DNA of 64,000 nucleotides from Armatimonadota bacterium (lineage in GTDB: Bacteria > Armatimonadota > UBA5829): NCBI GenBank assembly GCA_050948905.1, contig JBMNES010000001.1, positions 2,592,083 through 2,656,082 on the forward strand, written 5' to 3'. Below are positions 17,738-20,044 of the stretch, in pieces. The notes under the pieces were generated by a model. The model ran no database searches. It was given only the letters and a program-made list of their open reading frames with translations, and was not told the origin of the DNA. Each line of letters opens with the position of its first letter. Within the stretch, counting starts at the first letter, position 1. The position numbers were made by a program, and so were the translations under genes.

Positions 17738-20044
17738 CTATTCGCTTACTTTGCTGTCAACACCACCGCTGCCGATCGGCTTGCCGTCAGTTGCCGACCC
17801 ATCAATAGAACCACCGCTGCCAGGTAGTGCGAAATCTGCATAATATCTTGAATAAAAGTGACAGCTATCGACAGTATCCGACGGCATTCTATTCACTGCA
17901 ACACCGATAATATTCGCCCGCGCTTTCCTCAGCAGGTCGCGAGTGTGGACCTCGGTTCCCCGTGGCACCTGGTTTGCTGAGACGACCATAAGCACCGCAT
18001 CCACCCAATTGGCCAACATAGGGCTATCGCTAAATACAATCGTGCTGGGCGTATCGAACAGCACCAGATCACACTTATCCTGCAGCGAACTCACTAACTC
18101 GTGCATCGCCTCCGATCCTAACAGCTCAGAAGGGTTCATAGGCTGCGGCCCCGCTGGGATTACGATCAGGTTTTCCACCTCAGTCGTATGACAGGCATCA
18201 ACCAGAGTCCCTTTGCCCTGCAGCAACGTACTCAACCCGGCAGCGTTCGGTATATCGAAAAACCGATGCAAACTGGGCTTACGCATATCCGCATCTATAA
18301 GGATCACTCGTTTGCCGATCTGCGCCAACGCTATGGCTAAATTGCACACCGTCGTAGTAGCGCCCTGACCAGGTCTCCCAGTGGCGATCATCAACGTACG
18401 GAAGGGATTGTCTCTAAGCGCAAACAACACATTGGTGCGCAATATTTTATATGATTCGGCCATTGGTGAAAGAGGATAAAGATGAGTCAGCCTCGGAAGC
18501 ATCCCATCCCTCACCACCAACTGCGGCGTCACGCCGAGCACAGGTAGTTCCAGCATTTTTTCAACATCGGACGCGTGGCGCATTCGGTTGTCGATGGAAT
18601 CCAGCCAGACTGCCGCCAACACACCAACGATCAACGATAGCACAAAGCCATAGACCAGCAAGGATTTTCGCGACGGCCCCTGCACTATAGGCCCCTGTGA
18701 ATAGTGAGCCCACCCGTAAGGTACTATGGATCCTGTGCGAGTAAACTCCTTTTCGGCGATAACGGCCTGGTCGTGTTTCTCCGACAGCATTTTGTAAGTC
18801 GCCTCGGCTTGCGCATATTCCGTCATCAACTCAACATACTGTGGCTGTGAATCGGAGAGTTTCCTGACCCTTTCCTCGGCCTCCGCAAGGCTATTATCTA
18901 CTGCCTGGAGCCTGGCTTGTGCTGTAGCTAAGGAATATTGAGCGTCGGATTTCTTTCGGAGAAGGGCCTGGTGAATCTCGTTAAGCACAGGCGATGAGTA
19001 CGATGGGCCCTCTTCGGCAATCTTATCCTTGAGTATCTCGATTCGCTTCTCCGCCGCCTGATAGAGTTCGTGTTTTGGTTTATAGCGCTGGGCGATCATT
19101 CGCAAATCGACTTCTGCCTGCATCAGTTGTTCTTCGAGCTTAACCGCGCGCGGGTTCATCTCCGCCGGCAGCAGTTGATCGGAGACAAGAGGTTGAGTAA
19201 CCATCTGTAAATCAACGTTAGCAGATGCGGCCTGAGCCTCTTTAACTGCAGCTTCAGCCTCAGACTTCGCTGCCCTCAAGCCAGCGATAGAACTAATGGC
19301 CGTCCCGGTCTCCGCATCAATAGAGACCACCTTATGATTGTCCTTATATTGAGCGATCTCTTCACGCAAGACATCAAGCTTGACCTTGGCTTCCTGTTTG
19401 CTGGTTTTAAGGAAGTGCTCGTATGTGCGAGTATCCGCCCGGCTCTTATCCTGATAGCTCTCAGCAAAGGCCACCGCCACCGCATTGGCAAGGAAAGGGG
19501 AATCGTGCCCGTTTGGCATCTTAATTGTCAATCGTATGATATCTGTCGTAGTACCCTTTTCTCCGACAGTCTCACTTCGTACAGGAGTTACTTCAAGCAC
19601 GCTGCTCCAGTCTTGATGTCGCAGCGGCTTGCCCGGCTCTATCATTATTGTAGTCAAAGGTCTATTTGGTCGCGGAGGCAGTTCCGAATCCGGCACATCC
19701 GGCCCCACCAGGGCCCGCAGTTGCTTCTTCTGCTGGTCGGGGGTCTTTTCAAGAAATGCGCGCGCTCTATCGTAGACTTCACCCTGCTGCGCTAGAATGA
19801 TGAGGTTGCTTAGAATAACAGTTCTGTCAGGACCCGTGCCGCGGCGAGTGCTGGCCGTTGTAACTCCGCCCTGCATTACCTGCATACTTGGCGATACATA
19901 AGCTGAAGCCTCGTAGACAATTCTAGGCTTAGGTGCAGCGATTATAATGACCAAAAGGGTAATAGCCACGACCCCAAGAATCATCCATCTTCTCTGCCTG
20001 ATCACTCTTATGGTATGCCAAAAGTTCATAACAGAAATGACCAA
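17738..20044 (-). CDS. Wzc/GumC-like polysaccharide co-polymerase with C-terminal CpsD/BY-kinase-like P-loop domain (Walker A lysine replaced)
   Basis: 768 aa; N-terminal TM, long coiled-coil periplasmic region, second TM, then [38 protein letters not shown] (Walker A-like without Lys; Walker A' ILIDADMR; Walker B [9 protein letters not shown]). Confidence 0.75.
   Translation of the reverse strand: [768 protein letters not shown]

Follow-up and report, generated by a model that had tools for sequence, protein, structure and literature searches.

In the current model of Wzc, cycles of tyrosine phosphorylation and dephosphorylation drive the assembly and disassembly of the co-polymerase ring and are essential for polysaccharide production. 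How, then, would a Wzc-like protein operate if its kinase domain had lost the lysine of the P-loop (the Walker A motif)? The question is raised by a minus-strand gene (17738..20044) in a 64-kb stretch of Armatimonadota DNA, hereafter the window, which encodes a polysaccharide co-polymerase (PCP) whose cytoplasmic bacterial tyrosine kinase (BY-kinase) domain carries alanine at the lysine position. An earlier note on the window had read the product as an ATP-binding-deficient pseudokinase that works with an ABC exporter. The pseudokinase part of that reading is plausible and now has family-level support, and the explanation considered best as a whole, which we hold to be somewhat better than an even bet, is that of a kinase-dead, nucleotide- and Mg-binding, ring-forming assembly module. 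Judged from its sequence, the domain most likely serves as a scaffold that binds nucleotide, and does not work as a kinase.

The open reading frame is intact, with 768 amino acids (aa) counted from the first TTG; since orthologs begin MNFW, translation probably starts from the ATG at 20029, which would give a product of 763 aa with that same beginning. The proposal that this product is a Wzc-like co-polymerase was borne out by topology, predicted structure and family models alike. Two transmembrane helices flank a helical periplasmic domain, and a BY-kinase-type domain is fused on the cytoplasmic side, which is the architecture of the PCP-2a class. In the AlphaFold2 model (mean predicted local distance difference test score, pLDDT, 81.8) the periplasmic part consists of long helices (residues 162-417) and the cytoplasmic domain is alpha/beta. 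Foldseek matched the full-length model to E. coli Wzc (E = 2e-32) and the cytoplasmic domain to CapAB at 1.4-1.8 Å root-mean-square deviation and a template modelling score of 0.93-0.96 (target-normalised), and PDB entries 2ved, 7nhr and 3la6 were among the best structural matches. The NCBIfam model TIGR01007 (polysaccharide biosynthesis tyrosine autokinase domain) scored 161 bits over aa 530-730, above its curated cutoff of 108, and the domain has the P-loop/MinD-like fold of BY-kinases. TIGR03007 (chain-length determinant) matched aa 186-509 with E = 4.5e-20, below its curated cutoff. The protein also matches TIGR03018 (XrtA/PEP-CTERM-associated kinase) below cutoff. In Pfam only generic MinD/ParA-type P-loop families were found, with no match to Wzz or GNVR, and the CBP_BcsQ model reached just 23.5 bits, against the 161 bits of the BY-kinase model. 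By architecture and fold, the window protein is a PCP-2a (Wzc-type) co-polymerase.

Its P-loop does not follow the BY-kinase Walker A pattern GxxxxGK[ST]. Read on the minus strand, positions 18379 to 18350 are ggg aga cct ggt cag ggc gct act acg acg, and this places an alanine codon, GCT, at the site of CapB K55; as the earlier note had remarked, this is no single-base change, at least two being required to reach GCT from AAR. Staphylococcus aureus CapB (4jmp, 3bfv, 2ved) was aligned by phmmer (E ~1e-43) with no gap between residues upstream of the P-loop and the end of Walker B, CapB ITSEAPGAGKSTIAANLAVAYAQAGYKTLIVDGDMRKP falling onto a 39-residue segment of the query. The catalytic residues of CapB are K55, S56, D77, D79 and D157 (PMC2422856), and the residues that correspond to them in the window protein are Ala, Thr, Asp, Asp and Asp. 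A second alignment, of 62 lysine-less with 107 canonical domains, has Lys in this column in 107/107 canonical sequences. Because CapB and the 107 canonical domains align gap-free through the motif, the P-loop is not shifted. A lysine displaced to another site is ruled out as well, the sole family-specific gain of a basic residue lying at position -5 (offsets are counted from the lost lysine as position 0, and residue numbers such as Y711 and D564 are those of P0001). Of the other two nucleotide-binding motifs, which were said to be kept, Walker A' conforms to hhhhDxDxR, and in Walker B (DLVLFDTPS) the aspartate and first proline of the pattern hhhhDTPP are present, with the second proline replaced by serine.

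Conservation was assessed in 60 orthologs from independent samples, 48-78% identical to the window protein. The replacement of the lysine extends to every one of them, with Ala in 45/60 and Gly in 15/60. In the core PGQGxTTT the P, the Q, the G that follows and the first two Thr are 100% conserved, as are D564, D566, R568, D644, T543, E510, R516 and S647; in the O-motif at the ring interface the Glu and the second Arg are likewise invariant and the middle residue is R or K. All ~60 full-length relatives from the first search, Armatimonadota wherever named, carry GRPGQG[A/G]TTT, whereas the next-best matches, at 30% identity or less, carry GEGK[ST] and long tyrosine clusters. The C-terminal tyrosine cluster had been described as sparse. 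With three tyrosines in FYSRYY, it is indeed shorter than typical BY-kinase clusters, but it has not decayed: Y711 is conserved in 97% and Y714 and Y715 in 100% of the orthologs, in which two adjacent positions are often Tyr too. Mean conservation was 0.88 for the cytoplasmic domain, the best-conserved part of the protein, vs 0.67 for the periplasmic part, and by this comparison of sequences the cytoplasmic domain is under purifying selection.

These data bear directly on the suspicion that the gene is degenerating or artefactual, through sequencing or assembly error or through the onset of domain decay. The record is a metagenome-assembled genome and two related contigs, L006 and L007, contain obvious frameshifts, which would suit such an origin. 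However, the same P-loop is found in each of the independent orthologs and in about 60 more clusters (see below), the reading frame is unbroken, the domain concerned is the most conserved of the protein, and a change from Lys to Ala takes two base substitutions. The conservation data effectively refute this reading, which we regard as barely credible, and a private mutation or a sequencing error confined to the window is ruled out by the spread of the P-loop across orthologs.

Beyond FYSRYY the window protein has a tyrosine-free tail of 32 residues, and in most orthologs the tail is longer. There (P0004-P0058) an acidic disordered linker leads into a conserved NPFP[DE] motif at the C-terminus; this may be a short docking motif for some partner. 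This motif is absent from the window protein and from its two closest relatives (P0002, P0003), and no remnant of it was found downstream in any frame.

The comparison of lysine-less and canonical domains further indicated that the missing lysine belongs to a small set of coordinated substitutions, at positions 0, -2 and -5 and in Walker B. Position 0, always Lys in canonical domains, is mostly Ala or Gly and never Lys in the lysine-less family; position -2 is Gln in 98% of lysine-less domains vs Glu in 95% of canonical ones; position -5 is basic (Arg or Lys) in 95% vs 0%; and the second proline of DTPP is Ser in 90%, where canonical domains have Pro in 94%. Exceptions occur at position -5, which is Met in one close ortholog and Gln, Ile or Val in some distant members.

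The extent of the family was then defined with a profile of the lysine-less domain, searched against 1.84 billion representatives with clusters at 50% identity. The top 58 clusters all have a lysine-less P-loop, with the consensus [KR]PGQG[AG]T[TS]; a few more occur lower in the list, and canonical GEGK[ST] domains first turn up at ~260 bits. In a neighbour-joining tree built with the P-loop columns masked, 62/62 lysine-less domains fell in one clade that contains no canonical member. The purity of this clade and the spread of its carriers over several classes (below) indicate that the loss of the lysine is old and occurred once in the Armatimonadota family. Taxonomy was taken from one-genome-per-species GTDB data, in which 13 lysine-less loci were found; every named genome among them belongs to Armatimonadota and several classes are represented, the carriers including Armatimonas, Capsulimonadaceae, Capsulimonadales, Chthonomonadia and Abditibacteriota.

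Several other sequences met in these searches deserve mention. Outside the Armatimonadota clade, three BY-kinase-like proteins also lack the Walker A lysine, P0267 (GEGRST), P0316 (GEETTA) and P0287 (RPADGTST); since each has a different degenerate P-loop, the lysine has been lost independently more than once. The distant lysine-less members P0209, P0210, P0215, P0218, P0219, P0223, P0225, P0228, P0233 and P0251 are mostly 870-930 aa long, with a kinase-like domain, a long linker and a terminal hydrophobic segment resembling a third transmembrane or tail-anchor helix; three of them are shorter (490-700 aa) and have the same ending. P0091 (280 aa, on a 1.56-kb contig) looks like a canonical stand-alone kinase at its N-terminus (SAGAGSGKST), and its C-terminal two-thirds are ~65% identical to the lysine-less clade and finish in NPFPT. 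It is most simply an assembly chimera joined at a conserved stretch, or else a real recombinant, and was not used as evidence. P0093 and P0095 were not accepted as stand-alone lysine-less domains; their contigs hold many split genes, so both are probably frameshifted fragments.

What the absence of the lysine would mean for catalysis can be judged from engineered proteins. Kinase activity is abolished or reduced in every Walker A lysine mutant listed in a review of BY-kinases, Wzc K540M, VpsO K551A and ExoP K589I (PMC9800525), and CapB K55M is inactive (PMC2422856). Since these lysine mutants are all impaired, the pseudokinase assignment of the earlier note is the most reasonable reading, and the cytoplasmic domain would carry out no tyrosine phosphotransfer at a useful rate. 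The other half of that reading, the description as ATP-binding-deficient, was not supported. CapAB K55M keeps ADP-Mg through purification, and its crystal contains an octameric ring with Tyr225 of the neighbouring subunit in the active site (PMC2422856); in the presence of Mg or ATP-Mg, Wzc K540M closes and forms oligomers (PMC9800525). A third precedent is BcsQ, in which Thr15 replaces the cis lysine and an Arg stands at -5; its ATP binding is stable, its ATPase activity is weak, and it serves as an assembly factor (PMC7840130). The BcsQ P-loop, RGGVGTTT, was confirmed in PDB 6yar, and the lysine-less family shares its pattern R/K-x-G-x-G-small-T-T. Because the remaining nucleotide and Mg ligands are invariant in the family and these three proteins bind nucleotide, nucleotide-Mg would still be held here, by the P-loop backbone, the Thr following the Ala and the aspartates of Walker A' and of Walker B.

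From these considerations we infer the following mode of action. The conserved EX2RX2R interface would keep the co-polymerase in a Wzc-like ring, in which the conserved tyrosine motif of one subunit might dock in its neighbour as a latch and not as a phospho-acceptor. The co-polymerase would then be independent of phosphorylation, or at most slowly gated by nucleotide, and would act with the phosphoglycosyl transferase encoded upstream of it, the two heading a variable locus for polysaccharide. In the present genome the product would be exported by Wzm/Wzt, with the co-polymerase as a KpsE-like periplasmic adaptor.

Several points weigh against this explanation. The catalytic aspartates, including the equivalent of CapB D79, and the three tyrosines are fully kept, which is more than a pure scaffold seems to need; in CapB, D79 deprotonates the acceptor tyrosine. 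Going by the substitution pattern, the basic residue at -5 and the exchange of Glu for Gln at -2 look like a charge that has been relocated, by which catalysis could be restored. For ring formation and the docking of the tyrosines, CapB and Wzc are the models from which we extrapolate, and the tyrosine motif has low confidence in the AlphaFold2 monomer model (pLDDT 50-64). The window contains no gene for an outer-membrane polysaccharide export (OPX) protein (KpsD/Wza), so that for a KpsE-like role the window offers no outer-membrane partner. One observation that speaks for the explanation is limited in scope: no low-molecular-weight protein tyrosine phosphatase, PHP phosphatase or second BY-kinase is encoded in six annotated related loci or within the 64 kb of the window, which is a small part of a 3.05-Mb genome.

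The first two of these points could be turned into a different explanation, that the domain is an active kinase with a relocated charge, comparable to the WNK ('With-No-Lysine') kinases, in which the Arg or Lys at -5 neutralises the phosphates and the three to five conserved tyrosines are autophosphorylated. The substitutions are coordinated throughout the family, position 0 is limited in the orthologs to Ala and Gly as if room were required, the aspartates and the tyrosine motif are invariant, and in MinD, one of the related MinD/ParA ATPases, the 'signature' lysine K11 occupies the same position as -5 and contacts phosphates (PMC7840130). Against this, the MinD-type lysine acts in trans, between the two subunits of a sandwich dimer, an assembly not formed by BY-kinases; the equivalent residue of BcsQ, R10, is flipped off the ATP and has a structural role (PMC7840130); and the basic residue is not universal, as the Met, Gln, Ile and Val at -5 attest. 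The DTPP that sandwiches the acceptor tyrosine in CapB (PMC2422856) has become DTPS, and none of seven annotated loci has a cognate phosphatase gene nearby, these being the window and six related loci (L001, L003, L004, L088, L089 and L090), which likewise contain no second BY-kinase. We therefore hold an active, charge-relocated kinase to be unlikely. The same low probability is attached to a broader proposal, that the [KR]PGQG[AG]T[TS]T family might form an unrecognised mechanistic class, a tyrosine kinase or nucleotide switch that would be the P-loop counterpart of WNK. Its catalytic positive charge would have shifted to position -5, along with the exchange of Glu for Gln at -2. It would bind ATP and would either phosphorylate its Tyr motif or serve as a timer through slow ATP hydrolysis, phylum-wide and with any type of export.

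The conserved tyrosines also admit an explanation in which the domain is a pseudokinase serving as substrate only, with a canonical BY-kinase from another place in the genome acting in trans on its tyrosines, so that phosphorylation would continue to control ring assembly. Armatimonadota do encode canonical Wzc proteins, which have GEGK[ST] and long Y-clusters, and one of them, P0404 (locus L091), is probably encoded in the same genome as the lysine-less P0095 (L006). However, no canonical BY-kinase is found in the window, whose contig was also absent among the best 120 relatives of an Armatimonadota canonical Wzc, a weak negative. Moreover, trans-phosphorylation by BY-kinases is normally confined to one ring, and there is no phosphatase nearby. 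We judge this explanation to be quite unlikely, and the kinase-dead, nucleotide-binding assembly module is preferred to it.

The genomic surroundings of the gene were examined in the window and in related loci (features of the window are collected in the table below). Upstream of the co-polymerase lies a gene for a phosphoglycosyl transferase (PGT), and a PGT gene precedes the PCP gene also in L001, L003, L004, L009, L010, L019 and L089. The PGT-PCP pair is nearly constant across orthologous loci and the genes that follow it vary. The order PGT-PCP-Wzm(-Wzt) is seen in six loci, the window, L001, L004, L008, L010 and L019, and L090 has PCP-Wzm-Wzt without an upstream PGT. Two further loci hold equally close orthologs. 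In L089, Wzx and Wzy_C genes follow the PCP gene; in L003 an exosortase gene (EpsH family, 12331..13188) directly follows the lysine-less PCP gene in place of Wzm, and GT4 and PMT_2 genes are present as well; and the distant lysine-less member in L088 is part of a classic OPX-PCP-...-Wzx-...-Wzy cluster. Conversely, in L091 an OPX gene and one for a Wzt-like ABC ATPase come after the canonical Armatimonadota Wzc gene. The exosortase of L003 is in keeping with the window protein's matches to TIGR03018 and TIGR03007, both below cutoff.

The earlier note had drawn attention to an ABC exporter in place of Wzx, Wzy and Wza. That is true at the window, where no Poly_export, Polysacc_synt or Wzy_C gene is recognisable by family within the 64 kb, but it does not describe the family: the Wzx/Wzy-dependent pathway with an OPX protein that is typical of PCP-2a is absent from the window, and is represented by Wzx and Wzy_C in L089 and by OPX, Wzx and Wzy_C in L088. 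An obligate coupling of lysine loss to ABC export is contradicted by L089, L003 and L088, and by the canonical protein of L091 beside its Wzt-like ATPase. The association with an ABC exporter is common in the phylum; the lysine-less form does not need it and is not alone in having it. From the contexts of L089, L003 and L088 it follows that the loss of the lysine is older than the ABC context and independent of it. One PGT-PCP pair heading loci with three export or polymerisation modules suggests a generic assembly hub that is not bound to Wzy.

Features of the co-polymerase gene and of its locus, with positions in the window
Feature	Positions	Strand	Basis
PCP-2a (Wzc-like) co-polymerase gene with lysine-less BY-kinase-fold domain	17738..20044	-	TIGR01007; Foldseek to Wzc
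Transmembrane helix 1	19913..19996	-	aa 17-44; hydropathy scan, AlphaFold2 helix
Periplasmic PCP domain, ~415 aa, mostly alpha-helical	18671..19912	-	AlphaFold2; TIGR03007; Foldseek to Wzc
Transmembrane helix 2	18587..18670	-	aa 459-486; hydropathy scan, AlphaFold2
Cytoplasmic BY-kinase-fold (CapB/Wzc-like) domain	17855..18457	-	TIGR01007; phmmer to CapAB, E = 4e-43; Foldseek
Ring-interface O-motif ESYKILR (EX2[KR]X2R)	18437..18457	-	CapB E23/R26/R29; Wzc E508/R511/R514
Remodelled Walker A	18350..18379	-	core PGQG[A/G]TTT near-invariant in the 60 orthologs
AGA (Arg) codon, five residues ahead of the lost lysine (-5)	18374..18376	-	equivalent to MinD K11 and BcsQ R10
GCT (Ala) codon where CapB (K55) and Wzc (K540) have the catalytic Walker A lysine	18359..18361	-	alignment; DNA
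Walker A' (DxD motif)	18275..18304	-	D564, D566, R568, P570 100% conserved; aligns to CapB D77, D79
Walker B, DLVLFDTPS	18044..18070	-	Asp retained; second Pro of DTPP replaced by Ser
Residual tyrosine motif FYSRYY	17840..17857	-	Y711, Y714, Y715; aligns to CapB Y-cluster
Disordered C-terminal tail	17741..17836	-	pLDDT <50, residues 717-748
Polyprenyl-phosphate sugar-phosphate transferase (Bac_transf/WbaP-type PGT), upstream	20257..21066	-	Pfam Bac_transf, E = 1.9e-58; TIGR03025
ABC-2 permease (Wzm/KpsM-like), downstream	16855..17703	-	Pfam ABC2_membrane; NCBIfam Wzm/RfbD and KpsM below cutoff
ABC ATPase with Wzt C-terminal domain (Wzt/TagH-like)	7892..9103	-	Wzt_C domain

The cluster in the window further encodes GT2 and GT4 glycosyltransferases, a pyruvyl transferase, DegT, GNAT and ATP-grasp enzymes and products of rhamnose-precursor genes. 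Within it, a minus-strand gene at 5101..6609 encodes a 502-aa polytopic membrane protein with ~10-12 hydrophobic segments, which has no Pfam or NCBIfam match and which BLASTP found similar neither to the L089 Wzy_C protein nor to the L003 PMT_2 protein. An assignment as Wzy or as a PMT-type enzyme is thus unsupported by family or BLASTP matches, and the protein is retained as a candidate polymerase, ligase or GT-C enzyme. The minus-strand gene at 22390..22845 was considered as a hidden Wzx because of a match (50.9 bits) to Polysacc_synt_C, by name the C-terminal domain of Wzx, and was rejected, the match being misleading; its product is a soluble cupin of 151 aa (RmlC/FdtA-like sugar isomerase) with no hydrophobic segment. 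The cluster also has genes for a GT-C membrane glycosyltransferase of the YfhO type and for a protein with an MprF-like flippase domain (9128..11569 and 13773..14714, both minus strand). This pair hints at a second modification, on the periplasmic face and using a lipid-linked sugar, as in systems for teichoic-acid glycosylation. Unrelated to the co-polymerase, the minus-strand region 50230..54175 holds an arginine-kinase quality-control module, made up of genes for a ClpC-like AAA+ protein (50230..52695) and an McsB-like ATP:guanido phosphotransferase (52782..53816) and of a small upstream open reading frame (53813..54175).

A family conserved across a phylum that lacks the catalytic lysine and retains the rest of the active site amounts to a natural experiment on the phosphorylation cycle. 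Should the domain be inactive, a fused PCP-2a can function without the cycle, and the class of phosphorylation-independent PCP-2 systems, newly put forward for EcpK and HfsB, would be extended to a probable nucleotide binder; should it be active, it would represent a new catalytic solution among P-loop kinases. Public records name the relatives 'polysaccharide biosynthesis tyrosine autokinase', a name that overstates the sequence evidence and as a functional claim is probably wrong. BY pseudokinases as such are already established (EcpK, HfsB, GumC). A literature search found no description of a lysine-less Wzc-like family in Armatimonadota, and the lysine-less fused form apparently constitutes an undescribed family.

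With Wzc of E. coli and other PCP-2a proteins, the window protein shares the order of first transmembrane helix, helical periplasmic domain, second transmembrane helix and cytoplasmic P-loop domain, as well as the Walker A' and B aspartates, the EX2RX2R motif and C-terminal tyrosines. It differs from them in having no Walker A lysine, Gln at -2, a basic residue at -5, DTPS and just three conserved tyrosines followed by a long tail, and its locus differs in that Wzm/Wzt are found instead of adjacent Wza, Wzb, Wzx and Wzy. CapB K55M and Wzc K540M have the same fold and the same missing lysine; these, however, were engineered in active kinases, whereas in the present family the loss arose in nature, is ancient and came with co-substitutions at -5, at -2 and in Walker B.

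Two comparisons concern proteins of other architecture. KpsE, the PCP-3 protein, and KpsD, the OPX protein, belong to the ABC-transporter-dependent capsule pathway (PMC4594306), and the window protein resembles KpsE in being a co-polymerase-family protein encoded beside an ABC-2 exporter, its presumed partner. It is nonetheless not of the KpsE type, though Wzm adjoins it and Wzt is in the cluster: KpsE has no cytoplasmic P-loop domain, the window protein carries one of BY-kinase type, and no KpsE model matched it in the NCBIfam scan. BcsQ, a SIMIBI ATPase of enterobacterial cellulose secretion, belongs to the same superfamily, also takes part in polysaccharide secretion, and likewise has a small or hydroxyl residue for the cis lysine and an Arg at -5. 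BcsQ is nevertheless a soluble sandwich dimer with BcsR as a partner and is not a BY-kinase-type domain, and the likeness is at best convergent.

The closest functional parallels are BY pseudokinases, a group to which the window protein conforms in having a BY-kinase fold without a residue essential for catalysis. EcpK of M. xanthus and HfsB of C. crescentus aid a PCP-2 protein without tyrosine phosphorylation, a scaffold role being proposed, and both are stand-alone partners of a kinase-less PCP, EpsV for EcpK and HfsA for HfsB (PMC12004946); GumC of X. campestris has been termed a possible pseudo-BY-kinase (PMC9800525). In EcpK, Walker A, A' and B are missing together with every tail tyrosine (PMC12004946), and the window protein is not of this type. 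Its domain is fused to the PCP and has lost only the lysine, with Walker A', Walker B, the interface and the tyrosine motif kept, and it belongs to a separate clade which, among named genomes, is confined to Armatimonadota.

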